Shown: positions 5,213-52,319, counted from the stretch's first letter. The stretch is 64,000 nucleotides of DNA from an uncultured Verrucomicrobiae bacterium (GCA_963780535.1 CAWACS010000043.1:17613-81612), one strand, 5' to 3'. A program made the numbers and translations. The notes: generated by a model from the sequence alone, not told the origin.

Positions 5213-5278
5213 CGGTGGGGCGAGGCTACTGACGAGCCGCCCTTGGCTCTTCAAAGCGTAGCGAAAAGTCACAAGCAA
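5213..5278. repeat. REP-A element, left half only
   Basis: TTTCGGTGGGGCGAGGCTACTGACGAGCCGCCCTTGGCTCTTCAAAGCGTAGCGAA matches the left arm and internal segment of the 2041 copy. The right arm is absent. Confidence 0.6.
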
Positions 5279-5358: not shown

Positions 5359-5582
5359 GTTATCATCGGAACCGCTATAGTTTTGAGCCTCTTGCGTATT
5401 TTTGTGGCTATGGTTTTAGTTAATTTTTTCAACGCGGATACCGGAGAGGGAAAGAATCCGCGAAAATTCATGGAATTCGTGTCGGATTTCAAGTTGCAAA
5501 GAATTGTCAAAGTAAGTGTTGACATCATGCCAGTATTTGCTGTGATGGTTGGCGCAGGACATGAGACCATTCGGCACATGTA

Positions 5583-5927
5583 ATGCCGCTTGCTCAGGGC
5601 AAGTCAACCGCGCAACCGCGCAATAGTGCAGGGGAATCGTTTACCCGATCAAAATCTGGTTTGGCGCGCTTTGGCATGGATCGGGCGCATAGCTTTGCGC
5701 ACACCGGAATTGACCACCAAATCCAACCCTGCATCGAAATGAATGGTGGAACAATTAAAACTGGGGACATGGGCCCACGTGGCCAACTGGTTTTACCGTG
5801 GGGAAAAAGTAAATTTGTGTCAATACTTGGGACTGAACCCTTTACTGGCGATTGGCTGCGCTGGGTGAGCACGCGCGGCGGCAAAGGCCCGTGGAACGAG
5901 CCGGTCAGCGCTACGATTGCAGGATGA
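5583..5927 (+). CDS. possible gene remnant with FN3-like C-terminal strand
   Basis: The tail ...DWLRWVSTRGGKGPWNEPVSATIAG resembles the last strands of fibronectin-III-like domains. Its stop overlaps the next ATG (ATGA at 5924-5927). The N-terminal part looks non-coding. Weak call. Confidence 0.25.
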   Translation: MPLAQGKSTAQPRNSAGESFTRSKSGLARFGMDRAHSFAHTGIDHQIQPCIEMNGGTIKTGDMGPRGQLVLPWGKSKFVSILGTEPFTGDWLRWVSTRGGKGPWNEPVSATIAG

Positions 5928-7078
5928 AAGCGAAATGCAACATCCACAAGATGGCTTTAGTTGTCTTGGTGTTAGTTGTTTTAGTAGCGCAACCTTGGCT
6001 TGCTGACGCCGGGCAAGTAATTGATGTTCAGGGGCACTATGTTAAGACGCTCTATAGATACGGGAAACCAACAAGTGAATCTTTGCGTGTAACTTTTTTC
6101 ATTACCCTTTCGACAAACGCCTGTGGGATATGGGCGACGAACATGGACGATGCCTCTGTATGGGAAACTGTTGTTTACGATGGCACCAATACATATTTGC
6201 TAACTCCGATTGCCGGCCATTCCCCCCAAGGGGCGAGCGGAGCCACATTGTGTGGACTTGTAGATCCCGGACGTCAGTACTATACGATGGGCATAAGTTT
6301 TTTGGATACATATATTCCGTGGATAACATATTGCTTACGACCGTCTGACGTAACTCCCCACATGCATACACCCGGCGTGAACTGGAGAAGTGATGTAAAT
6401 ACTTATGGCTGGCGTTGGAAAGAGGTTGTGATTTCTTCCGACGGAAGGTTTTTGCAAGGATTTGTAATTGTCCGGGATTCATCGCTTGATTTGAACGGCA
6501 AGAGCGAACTTCTCCGGACCAATCTTGAGTATCCGCGAACAATTGATGATTTTCAAAATCAGAATCAATATCTAGCTTATCGTAAAAGCATTCCCGATGG
6601 TTGGGTTGGAAGAACATATATATGCGAGCAGTGGTATGAGACAAATGGCTATACTATTCCCTTGAGCGCCGAATTTAAACATTATGCTTTTAGCGGCGGC
6701 AAAACGCTTCTTACTGACAGTATAATCATACAGGCCGATACGATAAGTGTTTCCGAAGAAGCCACAAACTCGGCTCCGCCGCTAGCAGAGAAAACTTATG
6801 TCAGGGATTACCGCTACACCCGCCGGAACGAAAGTCGGATGTTCCCCTATGCCGAATATGTCGGATCGGGATCATGGAAACCTGATAACGACCCAGAGTT
6901 ATTAGCACAAGCAAATCGTTATATGAAATATGGGCCTACATTTGGTGATTTTGGGGTAGTGTCGAAGTTTTTCAGTCCTCAAGGAGGTCGCTTAATAGTG
7001 ATTTGGCTGTCATTGTTGCTCGTCAACGTAACAGTGATTGTCATATTAGTCCGTAACAAACTAAAAAAACACAAATAA
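5924..7078 (+). CDS. hypothetical exported, C-terminally membrane-anchored protein
   Basis: Signal peptide (MALVVLVLVVLVAQPWLADA). C-terminal TM helix plus basic tail (LIVIWLSLLLVNVTVIVILVRNKLKKHK). AT-richer than the flanks. No family recognised. Confidence 0.6.
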   Translation: MKAKCNIHKMALVVLVLVVLVAQPWLADAGQVIDVQGHYVKTLYRYGKPTSESLRVTFFITLSTNACGIWATNMDDASVWETVVYDGTNTYLLTPIAGHSPQGASGATLCGLVDPGRQYYTMGISFLDTYIPWITYCLRPSDVTPHMHTPGVNWRSDVNTYGWRWKEVVISSDGRFLQGFVIVRDSSLDLNGKSELLRTNLEYPRTIDDFQNQNQYLAYRKSIPDGWVGRTYICEQWYETNGYTIPLSAEFKHYAFSGGKTLLTDSIIIQADTISVSEEATNSAPPLAEKTYVRDYRYTRRNESRMFPYAEYVGSGSWKPDNDPELLAQANRYMKYGPTFGDFGVVSKFFSPQGGRLIVIWLSLLLVNVTVIVILVRNKLKKHK

Positions 7079-7082
7079 CAAC

Positions 7083-7328
7083 ATGAAAAATAAACTAAAA
7101 ATGACAATCGGTTTGCTTGCATTGTTGGGGATTGGAATAATCCCTGTGTCCATATTGGCTGCGGAAGATGCGGCAGCCTGCGCGTCGGAGACGCCTCCAT
7201 GTGATGGAGGAGAATGCCTGGCAAGTTATCCTGCAGGAGGCAATCAGCGTGGCCAATGTATTCAACAGGACAACCCTAGGTTTGACGGGGATCCGAAATG
7301 GTGCTTTTGTATTCCCGCCGGCAATTAG
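7083..7328 (+). CDS. small secreted cysteine-rich protein (6 Cys in a mature part of about 54 aa)
   Basis: Starts 4 nt after the previous stop. Signal peptide MKNKLKMTIGLLALLGIGIIPVSILA. Mature Cys pattern is C-x6-C-x4-C-x14-C-x14-C-x-C. Confidence 0.6.
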   Translation: MKNKLKMTIGLLALLGIGIIPVSILAAEDAAACASETPPCDGGECLASYPAGGNQRGQCIQQDNPRFDGDPKWCFCIPAGN

Positions 7329-7331
7329 GCC

Positions 7332-7853
7332 TTGTTAACCAAGCCACCATGCTTGATAAATCCATTGAAGCGACAAAGCAAAAAACAGAGCCAAGATCGT
7401 GTATCCGGCTCTGTTATCCTTGTTATAAGCCGAACACTTTTTATAAAATCAGCGGGAGTGTTGTTAACATTGACAGCGTTGGCAAAGCTGTATACAGCAT
7501 ATGCGGGATTGCGAATAATTGATTTGCACGATCCAATTCTGGGGTTCCGATTTCGCCACGAGTTGTTAGCCATCGGCATATTGGAGTTAACAATCGCTTG
7601 CGTGTGTTTGCTTACAAACCGCATCGGCTTGCAGTTGGGGCTTATTGCATGGCTGGGAACATGCTTCGCGGTGTATCGGTTAGGTCTATGGTGGATCGGC
7701 GGTGTTCAAGCTTGTCCTTGTCTCGGCAATTTTCCTGATGATCTTCATCTTTCAAAGGCAATCACCAATGCTATAACGTCGTGGATTATAATCTATTTAT
7801 TGATAGGGAGTTACAGCGGGCTGCTTAATATATGTTTACGAAAATCGGAGTAG
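7332..7853 (+). CDS. MauE/DoxX-like four-helix membrane protein
   Basis: Starts 3 nt after the previous stop (TTG start in the track). Four hydrophobic helices. CPCLG motif after helix 3, resembling the CGCFG-type motif of the MauE family. Confidence 0.5.
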
Positions 7854-10186
7854 TTTTCAGAGCAACAGTGCTGCTCGCAGTGCTTGTTTGCTGCCTATTC
7901 CAGTATGCATTGCGGTATCGCAGTCCTTTGAATAGGGATATTGCCACATTTGAACTGGTTTTTCTGCCTCAAGCCCAGTGGATGATTTTCGTGCTGGCTT
8001 GTGTTTGGTGCATTGGTCTGATCGCTTTGACGTATCAGTGGAACAATTTGTGGTTGATTGGACTTCTGTTGATTGTAGTCTTCGCCTATGCATCAAATTA
8101 CAAAATAGCTGCCTCGGATCCCAGCGCCTTAATTCTGTTGGTTGCTGTGGCTGCTGGCAAAGGAATCCTTTATTTTCGACAACAGAGACTCACACTTTCC
8201 TGTCTGATTGCGCTCTTGGTGGTGGCTTCCTGTTGGCACATTGAAAAGATTGTTGGCCATTATGTCGGGCCGCGCTGGATGGGGCTTTGGGATAATCCCA
8301 ATGACTACGGGTTGTTGATGGCCGTGGGCTTGATTCTAGCCGTTGGATTGTTGGCCGCGAAGAGGCACAAAAGGCACATAGAAACAGCAAATCAGAAAGC
8401 GGAAGGCGGAAACCAGGAAATAACAATCATAAAAAGGTACAAAGAGCACAAAGAAAATTCAAATTCTTTATTCCGTTCCTTTTTGCGTTCTCTGCGCTTT
8501 TTTGCGGCCAAAATAATTTCTGTTCTTCTTTTTATCGCGGCCTTTATGATGGCAACAGGATTGATCTTCAGTTACAGCCGTGGCGCATGGGTGGGAACGG
8601 CCATTGGGTTGCTGTATCTGGCAATGACTTACGGAAAGTTCAAGTGGCGGTGGGTGATACCGGGAATTTTCGTCGTGGCGGCGGTGGTATGGTTTTTCTG
8701 GAATGCCACGCCGGACAATGCGCCGTGGTATGTGAAGCGGCTGGATTTAGGCAGGGCATCGGCGCAACACCGGGTTGCGGCTTGGAAAGCGGGCTTTCAA
8801 ATGATGCGGGATCATCCTTTTGGCGTGGGTTGGAACGAGGTCGTTGATCTTTATCAGAAAAATTATTTGCCGCCGGAAGATGGCGCGGCGGCCATTACCA
8901 CGAATGATTATTTGATGCTGGGGACGCAATTGGGCTTGCCAGGGTTGATTTGTTTTGTGGCCTACGCTGCGCTCTGCTTTGTAGATAGGAGATGGAAGTT
9001 GGGAGTTGGCAAAGAAAAGCCTCACCTCACCCCGGCCCTCTCCCCATTTGGCCCCGCTGCCCCCGCCAAACGCGGAGAGGGAGAATTGTCGGTCGTCGCG
9101 ACGCAAACCATTTCACTTGGCACTCGTCACCTGTCACCCGCTTTCGCGTCACTTGCCACCCGTCACCTGTCACTCCAAGCCGCCTGCCGTTCGGCGGCGC
9201 TGGCCATGCTGGTGGCGTTTTGGTTTGACGGCGGGTTGTTCAAGCTGGCCACGGCAGCGGTGTTCTGGATTCTGTTGGAATTGGGAGCAGAGACAAGACG
9301 GAAGACAGAGGTCAGGGACCAGAAGACAGAGATCGAAAATCAGAAGTCAGAAGTCAGAAACCCGACCTCTGACCTCCGACCTCTGACTTCCGGCTTTACG
9401 CTCATTGAATTGCTGGTCGTTATCGCCATCATCGCAATTCTGGCCGCGCTATTGCTGCCCGCTCTTTCTGTCGCTAAACGAAGGGCTTCAGATATTCAGT
9501 GCATAAATAATCTCGGCCAAATGGCGATAGCAGGCACGCTATATTCCCATGATCACGATAAAACCGTCGCTTATACGGACGACTTGGGTATACCAAGGGC
9601 TGGCGACATCTGGTTGGCCCTTTTAAGCGAGTATTACTCTAATGTGAATGCCATTCGCCTCTGCCCGTTCGCATCGCAAGTCGCTACAAACACAGTTTGG
9701 TACGCAAAAGACATGAATAGCGCATGGCTTTTCAGATCCGTGGTGGATCCGAATAAGACTTATTCGGGGAGCTACGCGATGAATGGCTGGCTTTACACAG
9801 GTTTGCCGGACCCCAACGGCTACTTTTTCGAAAAATATTCCGCTGTAAAAAATACATCCATGACTCCGTTTTTCTGCGATTCCATCTGGGCAGATGTCTG
9901 GCCCGATGAAGTATCCGGCCCGGCGATTGATTTGACGAGGGGCGCGCTCACACCGGATATTGGACGCATAACCATTGCTCGACACGGCATATCTCCCGGG
10001 AATGTCCCCAGAAACATGACGGGCACCACGCCACTTCCGGGGTTCATCAATCTCTCCTTTATGGATGGACACGCGGAACGGGCATCCTTGGAGAGTCTGT
10101 GGGGGTTTTTGTGGCATCTAAAGTATGCGCCGCCAAAAATCCGCCCCCCGGCGATCGGTCAACCTCCACCGTGGCCGCCTAAATGA
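7832..10186 (+). CDS. single 784-aa ORF joining an O-antigen-ligase/Wzy_C-type polytopic protein to a prepilin-type protein
   Basis: N-terminal about 490 aa are multi-TM with Wzy_C-type loop motifs ([39 protein letters not shown]). There is no stop codon before the pilin-like module. The junction and one loop consist of repeat elements. Confidence 0.6.
9036..9081. repeat. CCCTCTCCCC...GGAGAGGG palindromic element inside a CDS
   Basis: Arms at 9036-9045 and 9074-9081. Translated in frame as [16 protein letters not shown]. Same arm sequence as the elements at 30291-30389. Confidence 0.7.
9124..9176. repeat. 7-nt periodic array (GTCACCY-type) inside a CDS
   Basis: tcGTCACCTGTCACCCgctttcgcGTCACTTGCCACCCGTCACCTGTCACTcc, translated as [17 protein letters not shown]. 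Confidence 0.7.
9289..9391. repeat. inverted pair of 7-nt arrays, (CAGAAGT)n / (GACCTCT)n, at the ligase-pilin junction
   Basis: Left: ...atCAGAAGTCAGAAGTCAGAAA. Right: GACCTCTGACCTCCGACCTCTGACTTCC. The arms are imperfectly complementary. Translated as ...[21 protein letters not shown]. Confidence 0.75.
9392..10186 (+). other. prepilin-type N-terminal cleavage/methylation module with DUF1559/H-X9-DG-like C-terminus
   Basis: G|[24 protein letters not shown] class-III signal at 9392. C-terminal ...[11 protein letters not shown]. No in-frame ATG/GTG/TTG in the roughly 30 codons upstream, so no independent canonical start is visible. Confidence 0.6.
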
Positions 10187-10221
10187 CGTCATAAATTATA
10201 TTGGCGTATCACACAGAATTC

Positions 10222-11955
10222 ATGACCAGCCCATCCACAGAATTCACCAGGAAACGGTTCACCATTTGGATTGTTCTTGGCGCGATTTTGTTTGTCTTGG
10301 GTTGGAGGGCGTTGGTGATAGCCGCTCAATATTTCAACGAACCTGATGTTGTCCGGGAACTTTGTTCCATACCGCAATTCGAGCAGGACTTGATTCCCAA
10401 CAGTGCCAACACGCGCTTGGTATTTTGCCAGGACACGGAGGCTGGCGTTGGTATTTATTTTTGCGATACCGACGGTGGGAAACCGCAATTATTGTGCGAA
10501 CAGAAAGAAAAAGGGAATCATTACAGACGTTTCTCGATGTTAGGTTGGGCTCCGGATGACAGTCTATTCGCGTGTGCTTGGCCGGAGAACACACAAGATC
10601 AAGAGTTCATCCTGATTTTTGATGGTCTCACGGGCCAGCTTTTAAGCAAGCTTGAAGCTGACCAAAGCTTTGAACAGTTTACTTGGCTTTCCAGTGGATC
10701 TTTCGCTTATTCCGCAGGCGGCACCTCGGTCAGGGTTGTCATCAAGCAGGCGGATGGTAGTTGGGTTCATAAGCGATATTTTGAGAATGTTGCCACCAAT
10801 ATGGACAATTTCGTCGCTTTTTCTCCCGATTCAGTTGCCTGGCACGACGGCAACGCGATTTGGTTGTTCAATCTTGATTCGGGCTCCTCGGAAAAAGTCT
10901 GGGAAGCGACCAATCAGTTGGTGGAGTTTACCATCGCCAGGGATAGCGGCGGATTTTTGCTGAATTGCAGCGATGACCTTGGACAATATCTGTCGTGGTT
11001 TGACCTGCAGGACAAACGTACAGTTGATTTGGGGCGGATCAGCGACCAGCAGAATTACATCCGTAACGCCATCTGGAACGGTCATGGCAGCAGTTACGCC
11101 TACCTGACGAACGATTTGGCGGGAAGCGCCTTTTGTATCAAGACCGCAGAAATGACCACGCCGATCACAATTACATGGCGCGGGGGCGTTCACAATTTAA
11201 CCCTGAACGGCAATCAATTGTTTTTCACCGGCAATCCGGAAGATCAACCACCGGGTATTTGGGAATACGACATCCAATTCAAAACCTTCAAATGTATAGT
11301 TCCCAGCACAAGCGGCCCGCCTGGAAATAGGATCGGGAGTCCGCCGATGTGTCAAATGATGACCAACTCCCTGGGCGAACAACGGTTCTACCATCTTTGG
11401 GGGCCACCTCATGTTTCACCCAATAAGAAATATCCGGTCTTGCTAGCTCAGGAGCTTAACTACTGGTTCCCCTGTTTTCAGGTCGCCGCCGACAGCGGTT
11501 ACTATGTGGCAGTGGTGGATCGCCCATTCTTCAACACTTGGGATGGGAATCCAGAGCATTCGTGGGTTGAAGACGTTAGTGGTCTCTATGAGGTTGCGAT
11601 GCGCAATCCAAACGTTGATACCAACCGTGTTTATCTTTACGCCTGCAGCAGAGAGACATCATTTTTGAGCCAATTGATGAATGAGAGGCCATCACTGGCG
11701 AAGGGCGCAATTCTATTCAGTCCGACCGGTCTTCCCGATGCTTCTGCCTTGCAAAACAAGCGGATTCTGATCGTGGATGGAAAGCTCGATGGCGACGCCT
11801 CACAGCGATTTTCTGAATTTCAGGACCGTGCAGCCCAGGAAGGGAATAACGTTACACTCCTTCTGCAAGATAATGCGGGTCATATTTCCGCCTCCGGCAC
11901 AACTCTATGTAATCAGGCGAGGCTGTTTGCCAAATTTATCTCGGATTACAAATGA
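10222..11955 (+). CDS. membrane-anchored beta-propeller plus alpha/beta-hydrolase (S9-peptidase-like) protein
   Basis: N-terminal TM (FTIWIVLGAILFVLGWRALVIAA). TolB/WD-like repeats (WAPDDSLFACAW, FSPDSVAWHDGNAIWLFNLDSG). C-terminal hydrolase-like region (KYPVLLAQ..., YLYACSRE, DGKLDGD, NAGHI). A TTG at 10201 is an alternative start. Confidence 0.6.
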   Translation: MTSPSTEFTRKRFTIWIVLGAILFVLGWRALVIAAQYFNEPDVVRELCSIPQFEQDLIPNSANTRLVFCQDTEAGVGIYFCDTDGGKPQLLCEQKEKGNHYRRFSMLGWAPDDSLFACAWPENTQDQEFILIFDGLTGQLLSKLEADQSFEQFTWLSSGSFAYSAGGTSVRVVIKQADGSWVHKRYFENVATNMDNFVAFSPDSVAWHDGNAIWLFNLDSGSSEKVWEATNQLVEFTIARDSGGFLLNCSDDLGQYLSWFDLQDKRTVDLGRISDQQNYIRNAIWNGHGSSYAYLTNDLAGSAFCIKTAEMTTPITITWRGGVHNLTLNGNQLFFTGNPEDQPPGIWEYDIQFKTFKCIVPSTSGPPGNRIGSPPMCQMMTNSLGEQRFYHLWGPPHVSPNKKYPVLLAQELNYWFPCFQVAADSGYYVAVVDRPFFNTWDGNPEHSWVEDVSGLYEVAMRNPNVDTNRVYLYACSRETSFLSQLMNERPSLAKGAILFSPTGLPDASALQNKRILIVDGKLDGDASQRFSEFQDRAAQEGNNVTLLLQDNAGHISASGTTLCNQARLFAKFISDYK

Positions 11956-12057
11956 CCTTTGACACTGCCAACTTCAATTCAATCGTGACCGGTTTCTCTG
12001 GGGAAGGGTTGGAACGATGGATTGTAGTCGCTCGGACCGGCATTGGTCTGGAAAGAT

Positions 12058-12747
12058 ATGCAGCCTAAACTCACGTTCTACTTCACGAATTCGGCCGCCG
12101 CCTTGCTGGCCGCCATGGCCACAGTTTTTTTTGTCGGCAATCTGGCCACCGGAACCTTGGTTCAACCACACGACCCGGTGTTGATGGTTTCTATGCGGAT
12201 TTTGTTTTGGATTCTGGGGATGGCTGGACTGGCGGTGTCCTTGTTCTGCATCTTTGCGAACAATCCTCAGTGGAAGATTGCACTTGTTCTGTGGCTTTCC
12301 CTGGACTTGGTGATTTACGGATTTGCCTTTCAATGGAGTGGGACACATGGCCTCGGCACCTATTTGGGCGCGGTTGCAGAACCATTCGGACTCTCAACCG
12401 GCACGTCCGGCTTCATTCTGACAGCCATGTTTGTGTATTTATTGGTAGGCAGTTCCTTTTTGCTCGGATCCTCCTGGTGGCAAAAGATTAGAGAGGAAGC
12501 AGGTGGCTACCTGAAAATTCCATGTCCCTCCTGTGGGGGCAAAATTAAATTTCCGCCGGCTGATATGGGCCGACAGATTCCTTGTCCGCATTGTCAGGTA
12601 TTGCTTACGCTGCGAAAACCCGAAGACAGGATGAAAATGGTCTGCGTTTTGTGTGGAGGACACGTTGAATTCCCCGCCCATGCGCTGGGACAAAAAATCC
12701 CATGCCCTCATTGCGCGAAAACCATCACACTGCTTCAGCCAACTTGA
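12058..12747 (+). CDS. membrane protein with two C-terminal zinc-ribbon repeats
   Basis: Four or five hydrophobic helices followed by CPSCGGKIKFP...IPCPHCQ and CVLCGGHVEFP...IPCPHCA. A TTG at 12043 is an alternative start. Confidence 0.6.
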   Translation: MQPKLTFYFTNSAAALLAAMATVFFVGNLATGTLVQPHDPVLMVSMRILFWILGMAGLAVSLFCIFANNPQWKIALVLWLSLDLVIYGFAFQWSGTHGLGTYLGAVAEPFGLSTGTSGFILTAMFVYLLVGSSFLLGSSWWQKIREEAGGYLKIPCPSCGGKIKFPPADMGRQIPCPHCQVLLTLRKPEDRMKMVCVLCGGHVEFPAHALGQKIPCPHCAKTITLLQPT

Positions 12748-12807
12748 ACGGCTTTGTCGCGGATGACATTGGTGATTCACAGCAGGCCCTGTGTGCCTTG
12801 AGGAAAC

Positions 12808-14589
<1,782 letters not shown>

Positions 14590-14677
14590 TCAATGCTCCC
14601 GGTTCATGCACCCAAAACGGGTTCGAATATGAAAAAGCCCGTTCCGTTTCGTCAAGCGGGGAAACTTCATGATGAAA

Positions 14678-16006
14678 CTATTTTTCCGGCACAATATAAA
14701 TGCCCCGGCCCTTCAGATTTTCCAAAATCATTTCCACCGTCCGGCCCATGGCTCCCAGATTTTCGCGGACGACCAGGAGCGCATTACGCCGCAATTCCTC
14801 GCGCCGGTTTTCATCCGCCAGCAATTCGCCCAGCGCCAGCTCCAGGGCCGCCGCGTCGGCCACCTGGACCGCCGCGTTCCGGGCGATAAAATTTCGCGCA
14901 ATGTCCGTGAAATTCTGCATGTTCGGCCCGAATACCATGGCCTTGCCCGCCGCCCCCGGCTCGATTGGATTCTGCCCGCCAACCGCCGTGAGGCTCTTGC
15001 CCACGAACACCAATGTCGCATGTTCATAGAAAAACCGCAACTCGCCGGTCGTGTTGACGAGCAAACATTCGATCTGCCCCTCGGTAAACCGCGCGCTGGC
15101 AAGGATTTCGTTGCGATAAACAAATTTGACGCCCCGTTCGCGCAATTGCCGCCCCACCTCACGGCACCGCTCAAAATGCCGGGGCACCAGCACCAGAAAC
15201 AGCCGGGGAAACAATATCCGCAGCCGTTGCGCGATCTCCGCCAGGGCGATTTCCTCGCCGGCATGGGTGCTGCCGCACACCAAAATCGGCGCGTCCGGCG
15301 GCACGCCGATCTGCTGCAACAGCGCCGGCACGTCAAGCCGGCGGTGACCATCGATCTTGGCCGCATCGAATTTCAAATTTCCCACCACCCGGATCGCTTC
15401 GGGCCGGCACCCGATTTCCCGCAGGCGTTCGGCGTCGGCTTCATTCTGCGCGCTGACACCCGTAAAGGCCGCGAACAGCGGGCGGAACAAAAATCCAAAG
15501 CGCCGGTAGCCACGGTGGGAACGGCTGGAAAGCCGGGCGTTGACCAGAAACAGGGGAATCTTGCGATTCCGCGCGCGCCACAGGAAGTTTGGCCAGATTT
15601 CCGCCTCAAAAAGCACAACGGCCACGGGATTGATGGTATCCAGGGCACGAATGACGGTTCTCCGCCCGTCCAAAGGATAGTAAATTTTACTGATGTGCGG
15701 CGGCAAATGACGGTGTAATTCCGCCATGCCGGTCGTCGTCGTCGTTGAAACCACGATTTTCAAATTGGGCACGCGCGGCTCGAGGGCGCGAATGAGCTGC
15801 GTGCACAGATTGACTTCGCCAACGCTGACGGCATGCAGCCAGATCACCTGGCGATTGGTCAACGCCTGCTTGAGGTTCCGGTGGTAACAGCCAAACCGCT
15901 CGGAAAAACCGGAAAGCCAGTCGCCGCGCCGCCACATCCGCAGGAAATAATACGGCGCGGTCAACACGAAGAAAACCGTGAACAGAATATTGTAGAGCGT
16001 TTGCAC
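14678..16006 (-). CDS. waaA: 3-deoxy-D-manno-octulosonic acid (Kdo) transferase
   Basis: N-terminal anchor LYNILFTVFFVLTAPYYFLRMWRRG, then WLHAVSVGE. GTG start at 16006 chosen. The track ORF extends to 16570 but that part overlaps the next gene. Confidence 0.8.
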   Translation of the reverse strand: MQTLYNILFTVFFVLTAPYYFLRMWRRGDWLSGFSERFGCYHRNLKQALTNRQVIWLHAVSVGEVNLCTQLIRALEPRVPNLKIVVSTTTTTGMAELHRHLPPHISKIYYPLDGRRTVIRALDTINPVAVVLFEAEIWPNFLWRARNRKIPLFLVNARLSSRSHRGYRRFGFLFRPLFAAFTGVSAQNEADAERLREIGCRPEAIRVVGNLKFDAAKIDGHRRLDVPALLQQIGVPPDAPILVCGSTHAGEEIALAEIAQRLRILFPRLFLVLVPRHFERCREVGRQLRERGVKFVYRNEILASARFTEGQIECLLVNTTGELRFFYEHATLVFVGKSLTAVGGQNPIEPGAAGKAMVFGPNMQNFTDIARNFIARNAAVQVADAAALELALGELLADENRREELRRNALLVVRENLGAMGRTVEMILENLKGRGIYIVPEK

Positions 16007-16074
16007 TCCAAGGTTAAACGGAACAGCCCTATTTTCCCGCAAACCGGAGCCGCGCGCAAAGAAAATGTTGCAAA

Positions 16075-17343
16075 TCAACCACGAAAGAAGACCAGCCACA
16101 CCGCCAGCAGCATCGGCAACAGGAACGGCAGCGTGAATTTCCAGATAAATCCCGGAAACGTCGGGGTACGGACTTTTTCGTGGTCGGCGATGGCTTTGAC
16201 CATGAAATTCGGCCCGTTGCCGATGTAAGTGGCGGCGCCGAAAAAGACCGCCCCCACACTGATGGCCACCAGATTCAGGGTATTTCCGCCCAATAGTCCC
16301 CCGACATCCCGGACGCCAGTCGCGCCCGAAAGTGCACTCAAAAAACTGAGATAAGTCGGCGCGTTGTCCAGCATGGTGGACAGTGTGCCCGTGCCAAAAT
16401 AGAAAAAGGCCGGCGCCGGTTCCGCGCCCAGCAACGCCCGCGCGTGCAAATCGAGCCAGTCCAGCGCGGGAATCATCGTGGCAAAAATGCCGGCGAATAA
16501 AATGGCCACCTCCTGAATCGGATGGAAATTGAAACGATTGGCCGCGTGCACGGCTTTGGGGGTGGTCCACCAGGAACCCGCGGCCGCGGCCAGCAGGATG
16601 CCTTCACGCAAAAAGACCGGGCGGTGGATGAACACCGCGCCCAGCATCAGGCCCAAAAAGAACAAATTCGCCAACCCGTCGAATTTCCAGGTTTCCCGCG
16701 CCGTCTCCCTTTGTCGGATTTCCCGCGGCGCGCGGAGGAAGTTGCGCCGGTCCACGACGTAGAACATGGCCAGCAGGATGCCGACGCCCATGGCCCACAT
16801 TCCCCAGCAATGCTCCGCCACCCACCAAAAGGGAATCCCCTGCAAGTAACCCAGAAACAACGGCGGATCACCAATGGGCGTCAGGCAGCCACCCACGTTC
16901 GCCACGATGAAAATAAAAAAAACAACGTGGTGCGCGGTGACACGGTATTGGTTCATCCGGAGCCATGGCCGGATCAGGAGCATGGCCGCGCCGGTCGTGC
17001 CTAAAACATTTGCCAGGACGGCGCCGATCAGCAGAAAAACCACATTCACCAACGGCGTCGCCTCGCCTTTCACGTTGATGTGGATGCCGCCGGCAACCAC
17101 AAACAGCGAGCCGACCAGCAGGATGAAACTGGCGTAATCGTGGGCCACGTGCAGCACGCGGTCCGGCGCCCGGAGAACCAGGAGGTAATAGCCCAGGGTG
17201 ATGAAGCCGAGACCGAGCGCGACCTTGGGATAGTGCCGCAACCACCAACCCGGGGCGATCAACGGCGCCAGGGCGATGGCCCCAAGCAGCAGCACAAACG
17301 GCAGAATCATCCACGGATTGGGCGCCATGATGTTTTCACTCAC
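16075..17343 (-). CDS. ArsB/NhaD-superfamily ion transporter (sodium:proton antiporter-like)
   Basis: 422 aa with about 10-12 TM helices. Motifs GTTGAAMLLIRP and VANVGGCLTPIGDPPLFLGY are typical of this permease superfamily. Confidence 0.65.
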   Translation of the reverse strand: MSENIMAPNPWMILPFVLLLGAIALAPLIAPGWWLRHYPKVALGLGFITLGYYLLVLRAPDRVLHVAHDYASFILLVGSLFVVAGGIHINVKGEATPLVNVVFLLIGAVLANVLGTTGAAMLLIRPWLRMNQYRVTAHHVVFFIFIVANVGGCLTPIGDPPLFLGYLQGIPFWWVAEHCWGMWAMGVGILLAMFYVVDRRNFLRAPREIRQRETARETWKFDGLANLFFLGLMLGAVFIHRPVFLREGILLAAAAGSWWTTPKAVHAANRFNFHPIQEVAILFAGIFATMIPALDWLDLHARALLGAEPAPAFFYFGTGTLSTMLDNAPTYLSFLSALSGATGVRDVGGLLGGNTLNLVAISVGAVFFGAATYIGNGPNFMVKAIADHEKVRTPTFPGFIWKFTLPFLLPMLLAVWLVFFRG

Positions 17344-23694: not shown

Positions 23695-23785
23695 GTACGG
23701 GTACTTTTTGGTGGGGCGAGGCTGCTGACGGGCCGGCTCGCGAGGACGCTCGCCCCACCAAAAACTGCGAAAGCTACCACTACCC
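23695..23785. repeat. REP-A palindromic intergenic element (short form)
   Basis: TTTTTGGTGGGGCGAGGCTGCTGACGGGCCGGCTCGCGAGGACGCTCGCCCCACCAAAAA with GGTAC.../...CTACC outer arms. Confidence 0.8.
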
Positions 23786-44014: not shown

Positions 44015-44103
44015 TGGGTACTGGCACATTTGGTGGGGCGAGGCTACTGACGAGCCGGCTCGCGAGTACGCTCGCCCCACCGAAAGCTGCAAAACGTACC
44101 CCC
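44015..44103. repeat. REP-A palindromic intergenic element (short form)
   Basis: GGGTACTGGCACATTTGGTGGGGCGAGGCTACTGACGAGCCGGCTCGCGAGTACGCTCGCCCCACCGAAAGCTGCAAAACGTACCC. Confidence 0.8.
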
Positions 44104-48865: not shown

Positions 48866-51250
48866 ATGGCAACCGACCCGATTTGCGGCATGACGGTGAA
48901 CGAAACGTCCGCCTTGCGCACCGAACGGGACGGGCAGACGTATTATTTTTGCTGCGAACATTGCCGGCAAAAGTTCTCGGAAATTCCGAACTCCGAACTC
49001 CGAACTCCGAACTCCGGCCATGGCCACGGGCATCACGGCGAGGCGGCGGCAAAGCCGGCCTCAAACACGCGGTATTTTTGTCCGATGTGTCCCGGTGTGG
49101 AATCGGACCGGACGGGCGATTGCCCGAAGTGCGGGATGCCGTTGGAACCCAAAACCGTGTCCGCCGAACCGGAGGACGACGGCGAAACCCGCACGCTGGC
49201 CCGCAAATTCCGGATCGGCCTGGCGCTGACCATTCCCGTCGTGTTTCTGGCAATGGGCCAATGGATTCCCGGCGTGCCAATCGACCGGTGGATTTCCAGG
49301 CCGGTTTCCCATTGGCTGGAATTGTTGTTGAGCACGCCGGTGGTGGTGTGGACGGGCGGGATCTTTTTTGGCCGGGCGTGGCGGTCGTTGAAGACGCGCC
49401 AGTTGAACATGTTTACCCTCATCGCGACCGGCGTCGGTGCGGCGTACGTTTACAGTGTCGTGGCCGTCGTCGCTCCCGGCATTTTCCCGCCATCGTTCCG
49501 GCAGCACGGCGTGGGACTTTATTTTGAGGCGGCCGCGGTCATCACCGTGCTGGTGTTGCTGGGACAGATGCTCGAAGCCAAAGCACGCCGCCGCACCGGA
49601 CAGGCCATCCAGGCGCTGCTCGGTCTGGCAGCCAAAACCGCGCACCGCGTCCGGGACGGCCACGAACTGGATGTGCCGGTGGAGGAATTGCAAAAAGGCG
49701 ACGTGCTGCGCATCCGGCCCGGCGAAAAGATTCCCCTCGACGGTGTGATGATCGAAGGCCACAGCAACGTGGACGAATCCATGATCACCGGTGAACCGAT
49801 GCCGGTCACCAAAGGCGTGCATGACGCGGTCGTCGGCGCGACCGTAAATCAAACGGGAACGTTTCTGATGCGCGCGGAGAAGGTCGGCTCGGAAACCCTG
49901 CTGGCGCAGATCGTGCAAATGGTGGTGGAAGCCCAGCGCAGCCGCGCGCCCATCCAGAAACTGGCGGACAGCGTGGCGGGCTATTTTGTGCCGACCGTCA
50001 TCGGCGCCGCCATCATCACCTTCGTGGTCTGGGCCGTTTGGGGACCGGCGCCGGCCATGGCCTGCGCGCTGGTCAATGCGGTGTCGGTGCTCATCATTGC
50101 CTGTCCGTGCGCGCTGGGTCTGGCGACGCCGATGTCCATCATGGTCGGCGTGGGCCGCGGCGCGCAGTCGGGCATTCTCATCCGAAACGCGGAAGCGATT
50201 GAAACGACGGAAAAGGTCACGCACCTGCTGACCGACAAGACCGGAACATTGACCGCCGGAAAACCGAAGGTGGTGAGCACCGTTTCGTCCCGTAGCAGCC
50301 GACGTGAGTCGGCTCAAACTGAAGGTTTTATAGAGGGTCAGAGCCGACTGACGTTGGCTGCTACAGATTTTAAAGAAGACACGCAACTGCTCGGCCTGGC
50401 TGCGTCGGTCGAGCAACTGAGTGAACATCCGCTGGCCCGGGCGATTGTGGACGAGGCAAAGGAAAGGAGAATCGCCCTGTCGCCGGTGAATGATTTTGAA
50501 TCCATAACCGGCGGCGGCGTGTCGGGAAAGATCGGCGACCGGACAGTCCGCGTGGGCAAGGAGAAATTTCTAAGTGAATTCGGCGTGATGATTCCCGACG
50601 ACTTGAAACAGGCATCGCAGCAACTTCAGGAAAAGGCGCAGACGGTGGTCTGGGTGGCGGTGGATGGCAGGGCGGTTGGCATCATCGGCATTGCCGATCC
50701 CATCAAGGAAACGACGCCCGCTGCCATCCGGGCGCTGCATGACATGGGACTGAAGGTCATCATGTGCACCGGCGACAATCGCAAGACCGCCGAGGCGGTG
50801 GCAAAGGAACTGGGCATTGACGAAGTCCGGGCGGAGTTGTCGCCGCAGGGTAAACATAAGCTGGTGAAGAAACTGAAAGCCGAGGGCAAGATTGTGGCGA
50901 TGGCCGGCGATGGCATCAACGACGCGCCCGCTCTGGCCGAGGCGCACGTGGGCATTGCGATGGGGACCGGAACGGACGTGGCCATCCAAAGTGCCGGCAT
51001 CACGCTGGTGAAAGGCGACCTGCAGGGCATCATCAAGGCGCTGTCCCTCAGCCGGGGCGTGATGAAGAACATCCGGCAGAATTTATTTTTCGCGTTTGTC
51101 TATAACGCACTGGGCGTGCCGATTGCGGCGGGAATTTTATATCCGGTGGCCCACCTGCTGCTCAATCCAATGATTGCCGGCGCCGCGATGAGTTGCAGCT
51201 CGCTCTCGGTCGTCAGCAACGCGCTGCGCCTGCGCAAGTTGAAATTGTAA
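48866..51250 (+). CDS. copA: copper-translocating P1B-type ATPase with N-terminal TRASH/YHS and CxxC-x-CxxC metal-binding modules
   Basis: DPICGMTV...[17 protein letters not shown]...[15 protein letters not shown] ([13 protein letters not shown]), DKTGTLT and GDGINDAP. Confidence 0.9.
48980..49017. repeat. 7-nt array (CGAACTC)x5 inside copA
   Basis: GAAATTC CGAACTC CGAACTC CGAACTC CGAACTC CGG, translated as [13 protein letters not shown], in the linker between the two metal-binding modules. Confidence 0.85.
50292..50364. repeat. GCAGCCGACGT-type palindromic element inside copA
   Basis: GTAGCAGCCGACGTGAGTCGGCTC-loop-GAGCCGACTGACGTTGGCTGCTAC, translated as [24 protein letters not shown]. It lies about 20 codons after DKTGTLT. 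Confidence 0.8.
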
Positions 51251-51281
51251 ACATGCCAACTTGATTAAGCAGATTCATCAT

Positions 51282-52319
51282 TTATTTGGCTTCATTCAAA
51301 TCGCGCACAAATTCAGCTATTGCGAGAAACCACTCACGCATTTTGTCATCAGCGCAAAAATCTTCAGTCAAACGTTTACGAAAACGAATCCAACTTTTCT
51401 CTTCTTTCTGAACAAAACACCCACCCACACCTTCTTCCTCTGGATACAACTGACTTCCCCAGACAGAATGAGTTTTTAACTTCTCAAACAATGTCCTTTT
51501 ATCTCCAACGAAAGCACGTTGCGCATGAACATAAATTTCCGGGGGTGATTGATGCATTTGGAAACCAAACCAAAAACCTTGGATGTCTTTGCCATAAGCT
51601 CCCAACCATAAATCACCCTTCCATATTTCAAATTTAATTTGACTGCCCTTAAACAAGGCTCCAAGGCGCTTATTCTTTCTTAAACTTTCGAGGAAATTTT
51701 CCATGTCTTCTCTTAATTGAAAACCATCAAAGTAATCCCGGATTTTTTGAATTTTAATTTTCATAGGTTTTAAACCTTGGTGGGCCAGAAATTCAGCGAA
51801 CCAAAGACAAACAAATTGCAATCCATGGTCACTGCGATCTCTAGGAGTAGCCAACAGTTCTTGCACTTGAGACCACGTGCAATGTTTGTCAGCACCTGTA
51901 GGCCGTTCAGAAAGAGGAGTAATTGTAACAACGTACCGATTAGCATACTTTCCAGATTGTCGGTCAATAATTTTCCTATAATCCTGAAGCTGATTTTTGC
52001 GAAAATCACTCCACACCTTATTCTCCAAAACAACGAAAAAGCTTCCTGCGTAAGACGAGATGGTTAAATCAAATCGATTTCCATCATCTGCCGATTGCGT
52101 TTCTATTTTCAAATCCGGCTGGCATTCCAATCCAAATAGGCGAAGAAAGGTTTTACGAAAATCTAAATTAACCCGAAGACACCAAGCCAAAGTTTCCGTG
52201 CAGAAATCTTCAAGGGGATCACGATTATCACGAGGAGTATAGGAAAACAATCGCGCTAATAAATTATTTGCCAGGGGATCATCGTCGTGCATTTCGGTTC
52301 TAATAACAGGAGAATTCAT
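51282..52319 (-). CDS. PD-(D/E)XK nuclease superfamily protein (PDDEXK_4-like)
   Basis: EDFCTETLAWCLR N-terminal motif. RFDLTISS...FFVVLENKVWSDFRKNQLQDYRKII gives the D...E-x-K core followed by QL-x-Y. AT-rich relative to both neighbours. Confidence 0.6.
   Translation of the reverse strand: MNSPVIRTEMHDDDPLANNLLARLFSYTPRDNRDPLEDFCTETLAWCLRVNLDFRKTFLRLFGLECQPDLKIETQSADDGNRFDLTISSYAGSFFVVLENKVWSDFRKNQLQDYRKIIDRQSGKYANRYVVTITPLSERPTGADKHCTWSQVQELLATPRDRSDHGLQFVCLWFAEFLAHQGLKPMKIKIQKIRDYFDGFQLREDMENFLESLRKNKRLGALFKGSQIKFEIWKGDLWLGAYGKDIQGFWFGFQMHQSPPEIYVHAQRAFVGDKRTLFEKLKTHSVWGSQLYPEEEGVGGCFVQKEEKSWIRFRKRLTEDFCADDKMREWFLAIAEFVRDLNEAK

Follow-up and report, generated by a model that had tools for sequence, protein, structure and literature searches.

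A Conserved Verrucomicrobiota Envelope Gene Cluster That Joins a Wzy_C Enzyme Lacking the Canonical Histidine to a Type IV Prepilin-Like Protein

Introduction

PglL, PglS, TfpO/PilO and TfpM are polytopic Wzy_C enzymes that are coupled genetically to type IV prepilin proteins. Among 31 pglL homologues, 21 adjoin genes for type IV pilins, which are their substrates (PMC3643930), and TfpO and TfpM enzymes likewise pair with neighbouring pilin substrates (PMC9829042). Functionally important arginines have been described in E. coli WaaL (R215 and R288) and N. meningitidis PglL (R224 and R298; PMC3643930), and the histidine of an H-N motif is required in WaaL, PglL, PglS, TfpO and TfpM (H338 in E. 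coli WaaL, H349 in PglL, H286 in TfpM; PMC9829042). Here we describe a cluster of six co-directional genes, g1 to g6, on a 64,000-nucleotide stretch of DNA from an uncultured Verrucomicrobiae bacterium (GCA_963780535.1 CAWACS010000043.1:17613-81612; this whole stretch is called the window below). The fourth gene encodes a Wzy_C enzyme and a prepilin-like protein in a single ORF (open reading frame). Around it lie genes for an anchored protein modelled as LolA/LolB-like (g1), a small secreted Cys-rich protein (g2), two related MauE-like membrane proteins (g3 and g6) and a predicted membrane-anchored S9-type hydrolase (g5).

The cluster is one copy of a conserved, Verrucomicrobiota-specific envelope system of two modules. 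The initial annotation of the window could not match the gene set to any system it could name, and this still holds: the set is not named in Pfam, NCBIfam or PADLOC, and full-text searches of the literature turned up no account of Wzy_C::prepilin fusions or of their association with MauE-like, LolA-like and S9 proteins. Database homologues are named merely “hypothetical protein,” “O-antigen ligase family protein” or “prepilin-type ... domain-containing protein.”

Materials and Methods

The labels g1 to g6 denote plus-strand ORFs of the window, and labels of the form L0xx denote related loci. We gathered 49 related loci from metagenomes and metagenome-assembled genomes (MAGs), using as seeds homologues of g1 (23 from a word-based search and 519 representative clusters from a profile search) and 72 homologues of g5; L047 and L048 were reached independently via g4. 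Named sources of the homologues and loci were Verrucomicrobiota, Verrucomicrobiia/-ae and Limisphaerales, largely from peat and soil, with taxonomy inferred from named homologues and GTDB loci. GC content was profiled in 1-kb windows over the 64-kb window.

Results and Discussion

A Wzy_C Enzyme and a Prepilin-Like Protein in One Polypeptide

There is no stop codon between the two parts of g4. The Wzy_C domain (PF04932) occupies residues 236-376 (76.7 bits against a cut-off of 31.7, E = 2.1e-21), and about 12 helices are predicted in the Wzy_C part, ahead of the pilin helix, in a low-confidence model. The prepilin N_methyl motif follows at residues 520-542 (E = 2e-6), with 27.7 bits to TIGR02532 (cut-off 16.3) and 27.5 bits to PF07963 (cut-off 21.2). 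Its class III signal is intact, with G520 at -1, F521 at +1 and Glu at +5 (G520 followed by F521-T-L-I-E-L-L), and leads into the alpha-1 helix, a globular domain and a Pro-rich tail. The first ~100 pilin residues align to solved type IV pilins, namely Thermus PilA (E = 1e-7), PilE and GspG. This is the only prepilin motif across the 64-kb window, and the cluster holds no gene for a peptidase, ATPase or secretin.

The in-frame fusion recurs, with unrelated linkers, in the window, L015, L022/L033, L047 and L048, and is therefore not an assembly accident. In L007, L016 and L020 the Wzy_C enzyme and the pilin are encoded by two adjacent genes, so that the adjacent, co-oriented pilin gene of TfpO and TfpM is also found here, fused or side by side. 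Roughly 30 of the 120 best database homologues of g4 are proteins of 660-960 amino acids (aa) with both PF04932 and PF07963, some also with PF07596 (DUF1559), and the prepilin motif is present in 27 of 56 aligned homologues. One further database homologue, P0154 (1178 aa), has Wzy_C fused to a transglutaminase-core domain (PF01841) in place of a pilin, which gives this Wzy_C clade a further partner that modifies proteins.

The linker between the two parts is rich in Lys, Arg and Glu, and its DNA, a GAAGTCAGA/TCTGACCTC repeat, contains an inverted repeat and forms a hairpin of ~20 bp; the corresponding RNA folds at -43.2 kcal/mol (z = -4.3). Equivalent linkers in L015 and L022 differ in sequence. 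The element might be a formerly intergenic element that is now read through, or a site of mRNA processing or pausing. Rfam matches to this segment were sub-threshold microRNA hairpin models and were dismissed. As modelled, the ~12 preceding helices, the charged linker and the intact motif are compatible with a cytoplasmic junction cut by a housekeeping prepilin peptidase.

The pilin part itself is of a 265-aa Verrucomicrobial type with a DGH motif. In its N-terminus and C-terminal DGH motif it is of the same kind as the Verrucomicrobial and Planctomycete DUF1559/H-X9-DG and Verru_Chthon prepilin-like families, yet it stays below the thresholds of PF07596 and TIGR02596, the latter for Verru_Chthon cassette protein D (19.7 bits against 70, over the N-terminal 24 residues only), and neither a fusion to Wzy_C nor a link with g5 and g6 is described for those families. 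TfpO and TfpM pilins end in an acceptor Ser/Thr, whereas the g4 pilin ends in its Pro-rich tail and has no conserved Ser/Thr at its C-terminus.

The Active Site Keeps Both Arginines but Not the Histidine

Two arginines of the Wzy_C part, R250 (SYSRGAW) and R314 (QHRVAAW), are invariant in 56 relatives. Both are shared with PglL, PglS, TfpO and TfpM, and they align with the SRG and VRLKIW motifs of WaaL 7TPG, whose E. coli counterparts are TQTRATL and LGARLAMY. WaaL 7TPG is the sole solved structure matched by the family profile (E = 1.2e-5), with “tlNdY” of the family over “AHND”; SRG, R-x-x-x-W and N-[DE]-hydrophobic motifs are thus common to g4 and WaaL. H338 of E. coli WaaL lies within “HLHNEIIEA,” and the corresponding residue of g4 is T357, which precedes the invariant N358. 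This mapping is based on the hidden Markov model alignment to 7TPG together with motif identity between 7TPG and E. coli WaaL; direct comparison of the family with E. coli WaaL by hhalign and hmmsearch gave no usable alignment.

Since both WaaL/PglL arginines are kept, g4 should still bind a polyprenyl-pyrophosphate-linked donor. It may act like a ligase through another catalytic residue, or be a polymerase-type enzyme. We did not accept g4 as a member of the PglL, TfpO, TfpM or WaaL families, because the histidine essential to them is replaced (by Thr or Met across the g4 family), PglL_A is absent and the pilin has no conserved C-terminal Ser/Thr. From WaaL it differs further in its fusion to a pilin, its variable N-terminal half, its position outside a conserved lipopolysaccharide (LPS) core locus and an insertion of ~70 aa in a Wzy_C loop. 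The insertion (residues 384-452) is unmatched in the L002 orthologue and has a similar counterpart in L015. GC content is locally raised there, and a 25-nucleotide (nt) direct repeat is present (9113-9137 and 9149-9173), so that the insertion looks like a small repeat element tolerated in a coding loop.

Seven Protein Families Travel Together

The seven protein families of the cluster occur together in about 20 distinct loci from Verrucomicrobiota and peat metagenomes, often in the same order and partly permuted. The g6 gene lies directly downstream of g5 in 28 of the 30 loci with room for it, and L044, one of the two misses, does have g6. Of 33 loci, 23 have a prepilin gene on the same strand and at most 1.6 kb upstream. 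In most long loci g3 and Wzy_C are adjacent, and a g3-like gene adjoining a Wzy_C gene either directly precedes the pilin, which is the arrangement of the window, or follows at a distance of a few kilobases. L047 and L048 repeat the order of the window (AraC, g1-like, MauE, Wzy_C::pilin, g5-like, g6-like). The order is pilin-g5-g6-AraC-g1-Cys-rich-g3-Wzy_C in L002 and Wzy_C-pilin-g5-g6-g1 in L007. Such permutation across distant loci argues for selection on co-location and against recent common descent. Gene fusions tie g3 to g1 and Wzy_C to the pilin, and synteny ties g3 to Wzy_C and the pilin to g5 and g6. PglL/TfpO-type systems have no counterpart to the five further conserved partners, and in the present system enzyme and pilin are often one polypeptide.

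Some genomes carry the system in several copies, as seen from two pilin-g5-g6 units in tandem in L021 (973-3595 and 4163-7499) and from the separate loci L008 and L013 of one MAG (GCA_021780375.1, BP7.bin11). A small AraC-type helix-turn-helix (HTH) gene sits beside most clusters (L002, L007, L013, L019, L022 and L047), including one upstream of g1 in L049; this regulator is missing from the window's copy. Genes for polyprenyl-phosphate glycosylation occur within the clusters of several relatives, encoding GT2 with GT2_TM_C (L005-L007), GtrA and GT87 (L011), and GT2 (L027). No Wzy_C match was found in L011 (12490-15109), where g1 and g3 are followed by genes for a 443-aa protein without a Pfam match, a GT87 glycosyltransferase (GT-C type) and then a pilin-like protein, with GtrA upstream; here Wzy_C may be functionally replaced by another lipid-linked-sugar transferase.

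A Mosaic of a Resident Unit and an Exchanged Cassette

The initial annotation took the region for an AT-richer stretch, flanked by repeats and perhaps acquired horizontally. The composition is as it proposed. Between 5.9 and 11.7 kb mean GC is 0.492 (standard deviation 0.032, minimum 0.443) against 0.601 (standard deviation 0.036) in the rest of the window. GC at third codon positions is two-tiered, at 0.43-0.45 in g1-g3 and 0.55-0.57 in g4-g6, compared with 0.72-0.78 in the flanking genes for a GH2 glycosidase, rpoD and kdtA. As to the repeats, only the segment at 5214-5265 has other copies in the window. It belongs to a dispersed repeat of ~26-52 nt (GGTGGGGCGAGGCTACTGACGAGCCGCCC...) found also at 2058-2109, 23710-23735 and 44032-44057, with one copy just upstream of the cluster and one just upstream of the GH2 gene. 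It stands on the left side only, and direct or inverted repeats that bracket the cluster region, or anything comparable at its right end, were not found. With no such repeats, no tRNA found near the cluster and no mobility genes found in the window's copy, we rejected a simple repeat-bounded island.

Similarity to the closest relatives is split. L049 matches the window at the nucleotide level over 5961-8964 (82% and 74% identity), which covers g1, g2, g3 and the first part of Wzy_C. L015 matches over 8526-12972 (77%), a span that takes in the Wzy_C domain, the pilin, g5 and g6 and reaches into rpoD; the last 52 RpoD residues in L015 are 98% identical, and its g3 protein is only 36% identical. 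The cluster is therefore a mosaic. In this lineage the right part (pilin, g5, g6) is resident beside rpoD, and the left, most AT-rich cassette (g1, g2, g3 and the N-terminal half of Wzy_C) has been exchanged; it alone, being similar to L049 and not to L015, is of different origin. Divergence is fastest in this cassette: identities between loci are 28-51% for Wzy_C, with g3, g1 and g2 likewise among the fastest, against 46-80% for g5 and 72-85% for the pilin.

Acquisition of the whole 7.4 kb as a single island thus finds no support, because pilin-g5-g6 adjoins rpoD in relatives, the left cassette alone differs and the repeats do not flank the cluster. That clusters of this kind move horizontally is still plausible, because they are AT-richer than their flanks in most relatives and because mobility genes accompany them in two loci. 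L011 has a transposase and ArdC near the cluster. In L022 the cluster lies between a tyrosine integrase (778-2274) and a TrwC/TraI-type relaxase (12458-15457), whose inserted segment parts g6 from rpoD, now 7.6 kb away, an arrangement suggestive of an integrative mobilisable element in the same place on the chromosome.

The Variable Partners g1, g2 and g3

The g1 protein has no match in Pfam or NCBIfam, and a closer g1 alignment run against GTDB species representatives found no relative. Its AlphaFold2 (AF2) model has a predicted local distance difference test score (pLDDT) of 83.9, and the top Foldseek matches in the PDB are DUF1329, LolB, LolA and RseB/MucB. The best of these reach probabilities of 0.95-1.0 with modest target-normalised template-modelling (TM) scores of 0.40-0.52. 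The protein models as a LolA/LolB-like half-barrel, and it differs from LolA/LolB-type proteins in being about twice their size at less than 10% sequence identity, in its anchoring by a C-terminal helix with an invariant Trp and in its conserved polar motifs (YDGTNTY, VRDxSLD, VRDYRY), which are not known in LolA. It is a fast-evolving component. In loci seemingly without g1, its position is held by a signal-peptide protein of ~300-560 aa with a C-terminal anchor, which is a remote g1 homologue (hhalign probability 98.3%, E = 2e-14). An N-terminal g3-like domain is present in 54 of the 61 g1-family representatives of at least 480 aa, and 58 of 59 g3-like domains found in the g1 family have C-x-C-x-G.

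The g2 protein is 80% identical to its L049 orthologue. In eight other loci (L002, L011, L013, L016, L019, L025, L027 and L038) the equivalent position is occupied by small proteins with a signal peptide and 9-14 Cys whose sequences show no detectable similarity to g2, so that g2 is one of a hypervariable set of small Cys-rich secreted proteins at that position. A lipoprotein was considered and rejected, there being no consistent lipobox.

For g3 the window protein matches PF07291 weakly (E = 0.051; 14.3 bits, below the cut-off of 27), although over profile positions 13-126 of 128. Its orthologues match in 14 of 15 cases, the best at 9.9e-10, and P-C-x-C-L-G is invariant in the family (C128 and C130). 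In L022 a canonical MauE protein (E = 1e-20) carries CGCF where g3 has its CxC. The MauE assignment is thus sound at the family level, where members match PF07291 over its full length and keep the C-x-C, and the single-sequence threshold is not reached. MauE is linked to maturation of the disulfide-rich MauA subunit, and g3 adjoins a small secreted Cys-rich protein in apparent parallel. Unlike MauE clusters, this one has no mau genes and no thioredoxin-like MauD partner; g3 is moreover fused to the LolA-like domain in relatives and duplicated as g6, with CxC lost and zinc ribbons gained.

The Conserved Partners g5 and g6

The window's g5 protein has no Pfam match. The family profile matches the esterase LC-Est1C (E = 5e-5) and the DPP-IV propeller (E = 1.4e-4) in the PDB, and 13 of 25 relatives match Peptidase_S9 (PF00326) and 4 match the S9 propeller. 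A putative triad is conserved (Ser483 in 24 of 25, Asp530 in 23 of 25, His561 in 25 of 25). The propeller followed by an alpha/beta-hydrolase, with Ser-Asp-His in S9 order, is shared with prolyl oligopeptidase, DPP-IV and acylaminoacyl peptidase. From these S9 peptidases g5 differs by its nucleophile elbow, which is A-C-S-R-E in the window and A-[C/S]-S-x-[E/D] in the family, not G-x-S-x-G; by its N-terminal membrane anchor, a single transmembrane segment at residues 22-40; and by its constant place between the pilin gene and g6. We regard it as a predicted divergent S9-type serine hydrolase with an intact triad. The g5 homologue of L047 (10401-13061) carries two discoidin (F5/8 type C) carbohydrate-binding domains between its N-terminal part and the hydrolase, which hints that the hydrolase may meet a glycan.

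The g6 protein is paralogous to g3, as cross-matches indicate, and is without the CxC motif. Its four-helix domain is followed by two C-x2-C...C-P-H-C ribbons, conserved in the alignment and with weak matches to zinc-ribbon Pfam families. An anti-phage defence system was rejected, as none of g1-g6 matched PADLOC.

Gene Layout and Surroundings

The features of the cluster are listed in Table 1. Intergenic distances from g1 to g6 are 4 nt, 3 nt, a 22-nt overlap, 14 nt and about 87-102 nt, the last depending on the start of g6, which is likely the ATG at 12058. The initial annotation had counted six or seven tightly packed plus-strand genes, and six stand. The seventh, an ORF at 5583-5927 with an ATGA overlap, is not counted, because it has no counterpart in the related loci and the sequence of L049 differs there: nucleotide homology of the window to L049 begins at 5961, and over the ORF the two are unrelated. 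It is probably not a gene. The first three spacings agree with those noted initially, and so do the MauE-like character of g3, the Wzy_C and pilin parts of g4, the propeller and alpha/beta-hydrolase of g5, the two zinc ribbons of g6 and, by hydropathy, the membrane-bound or exported nature of every product; the check proposed at that time, a search for the set as a conserved neighbourhood, found it co-conserved in other loci. In a sigma-70 promoter scan, sites were no more numerous than in shuffled sequence.

Table 1. Positions in the window of the cluster genes, of the parts of g4 and of the region upstream.
Feature	Position	Strand	Evidence
Upstream region without a conserved gene	5360..5923	+	ORF 5583-5927 unmatched in 49 related loci
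g1, LolA/LolB-like (modelled) anchored exported protein, 384 aa	5924..7078	+	signal peptide, C-terminal transmembrane helix, AF2 model
g2, secreted 6-Cys protein, 81 aa	7083..7328	+	signal peptide, 6 Cys
g3, MauE-family four-helix membrane protein, 173 aa	7332..7853	+	PF07291, P-C-x-C-L-G
g4, Wzy_C::prepilin single ORF, 784 aa	7832..10186	+	Pfam and NCBIfam matches
Wzy_C part of g4	7832..9298	+	alignments, 7TPG profile match
Insertion of ~70 aa in Wzy_C loop	8984..9190	+	unmatched in L002 orthologue
Charged linker, hairpin-forming DNA/RNA	9292..9399	+	inverted repeat, RNA fold
Prepilin-like part of g4	9389..10186	+	TIGR02532, solved-pilin alignment
g5, transmembrane anchor, beta-propeller and predicted S9-type alpha/beta-hydrolase, 584 aa	10201..11955	+	family profile, triad
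g6, four-helix membrane domain and two zinc ribbons, 234 aa	12043..12747	+	alignment, g3 cross-matches

Just past rpoD, the window carries kdtA/waaA (Kdo transferase; 14678-16570, minus strand), and in L048 a PagL lipid A deacylase (15475-16131) lies 3 kb from the cluster. This proximity of LPS genes may be coincidental, since other loci have different flanks. Another patch of low GC (0.40-0.49) occupies 50750-52000. A 345-aa protein encoded there (51282-52319, minus strand) matches the PADLOC candidate defence family PDC-S26 (E = 3e-10), and its gene comes just after that of a heavy-metal P-type ATPase (48866-51250); it was probably acquired independently.

What the System May Do

We assign a probability of a little over one in three to a reading by analogy with the PglL/TfpO-pilin pairs, in which the cluster would be a related but mechanistically distinct system for periplasmic glycan transfer and maturation that acts on its own pilin-like protein. 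Conserved module B would comprise the type-IV-prepilin-like protein, the membrane-anchored periplasmic S9-type hydrolase g5 and the MauE-like g6 with its cytoplasmic zinc ribbons. Variable module A, exchanged between lineages, would comprise the LolA-like g1, the disulfide-rich g2, the MauE-family CxC protein g3 and the Wzy_C enzyme. This enzyme would bind an undecaprenyl-pyrophosphate-linked glycan through its two conserved arginines and, at the periplasmic face, transfer it to its own pilin-like partner, the direction suggested by PglL, TfpO and TfpM, or build a glycan there. A housekeeping prepilin peptidase would cut g4 between G520 and F521 and so free the pilin. By analogy with MauE and MauA, g3 and g1 together might oxidise or handle the Cys-rich g2. 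The S9 hydrolase might trim a protein partner; the Pro-rich tail of the pilin can be named as a candidate, though purely as speculation. What results would be a structure at the surface or in the periplasm that varies between strains. The glycosylation genes in relatives' clusters (GT2, GtrA, GT87) fit periplasmic glycosylation.

Several observations weigh against this reading. The position of the catalytic histidine is Thr in 39 and Met in 17 of the 56 relatives and His in none, so the chemistry cannot match that of known O-oligosaccharyltransferases. Glycan-synthesis genes are absent from the window's copy of the cluster, and to our knowledge no known pilin-glycosylation system has an S9 hydrolase, a MauE-like or a LolA-like protein. 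Of all proteins in the cluster the pilin varies least, not most, and its C-terminal residue, following a conserved QPPPWPP, varies among K, Q, T, L, R, H and N across orthologues, where TfpO and TfpM need a conserved Ser/Thr. The AF2 model of whole g4 is poor (pLDDT 54, predicted TM score 0.47) and too weak for enzyme-substrate geometry. Finally, the Pfam scan of g4 gave no match to PglL_A (PF15864) at E <= 0.01, a motif defined in earlier work (PMC3643930).

The missing histidine is also where the foremost alternative begins. An active site with the arginines only, in which none of 56 relatives has the ligase histidine, fits a polymerase-type Wzy_C as Wzy studies describe it, and the cluster could then be a surface-polysaccharide locus of O-antigen or exopolysaccharide type. 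Here g4 would be a Wzy-like polymerase or a lipid-acceptor ligase rather than a protein glycosyltransferase, the pilin a periplasmic accessory or scaffold (for example, a polymer-pushing pseudopilus) and the S9-type enzyme a glycan-editing esterase, in keeping with the esterase that is the best PDB match of g5. Low GC and cassette exchange are typical of surface-glycan loci, the GT2, GT87 and GtrA genes of relatives would have a place, and LPS genes are nearby both in the window and in L048. This proximity is not conserved, however, as flanking genes vary by locus, and the window's cluster has no Wzx flippase, chain-length regulator, initiating transferase or sugar-nucleotide genes. Nor would this account explain why fusion to a canonical prepilin recurs, or why the association with MauE-like, LolA-like and Cys-rich proteins is invariant. 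We consider this account possible, if doubtful.

A bolder proposal, which we think unlikely, is that the cluster is not a variant of pilin glycosylation at all and instead represents a new surface-diversification system of Verrucomicrobiota. A histidine-independent Wzy_C would serve as a giant prepilin “leader” that is split off by prepilin peptidase, so coupling lipid-linked chemistry to pseudopilus-type assembly, and a MauE::LolA-like redox-carrier pair together with the anchored S9 hydrolase would display or release hypervariable disulfide-rich proteins.

These small proteins stand at the centre of another alternative, in which the cluster matures and displays or exports g2 as an adhesin-, bacteriocin- or signal-like product: g3 would make its disulfides, g1 chaperone it, the S9 peptidase process it, and the pilin and Wzy_C anchor or present it. 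An unrelated small signal-peptide protein with 6-14 Cys does lie beside g1/g3 in almost every long locus, the MauE family is tied to maturation of disulfide-rich MauA, many relatives have g1 fused to g3, and it is the g1-g2-g3 cassette that has been exchanged and evolves fastest. The most conserved and widespread part, however, is the pilin-g5-g6 core, often several kilobases from the Cys-rich gene, and Wzy_C would have no obvious role. The cluster contains neither an exporter (an ABC transporter or secretin) nor an immunity gene, and its products gave no match to a family of ribosomally synthesised and post-translationally modified peptides or bacteriocins. On balance this appears quite improbable.

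Far less probable still is a system for envelope-stress or lipid-sensing signalling, in which g1 would act like RseB/MucB, g6 would be a zinc-binding anti-sigma-like protein, the AraC regulator would be the output and the place next to rpoD would carry meaning. Foldseek does match g1 to RseB and MucB, yet weakly (probability 0.25-0.47, TM score about 0.2) and below LolA/LolB. The zinc ribbons of g6 are cytoplasmic, but they stand at the C-terminus, and the Pfam models of ZAS anti-sigma domains do not match them. The small AraC HTH gene accompanies the cluster in many loci, whereas adjacency to rpoD is confined to close relatives; Wzy_C, the pilin and the hydrolase would all be left unexplained. 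A chance row of unrelated, horizontally acquired membrane-protein genes without joint function, to which the atypical composition and the lack of Pfam matches for the window's g1, g2 and g5 might point, is contradicted by the neighbourhood data, that is, by co-conservation in permuted order across loci at 22-40% identity and by two gene fusions, and we give it almost no credence.

Implications for Verrucomicrobiota

Verrucomicrobiota and Planctomycetota encode very many prepilin-like proteins, and in the literature searched we found no function for them. The cluster links one such pilin family, by fusion and strict synteny, to an enzyme family of known chemistry, and ties it to four further families without an assigned role, which makes it a tractable experimental entry point. 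It is widespread in an under-studied phylum and offers two informative fusions and a missing catalytic residue. That a variable cassette is paired with a constant module points to a locus for surface diversification in bacteria that are abundant in peat and soil. Lipid-linked glycan transferases are used in bioconjugate vaccine production, and should the Wzy_C enzyme of this system prove active although it lacks the canonical histidine, the range of mechanisms known for this group of enzymes would be extended.

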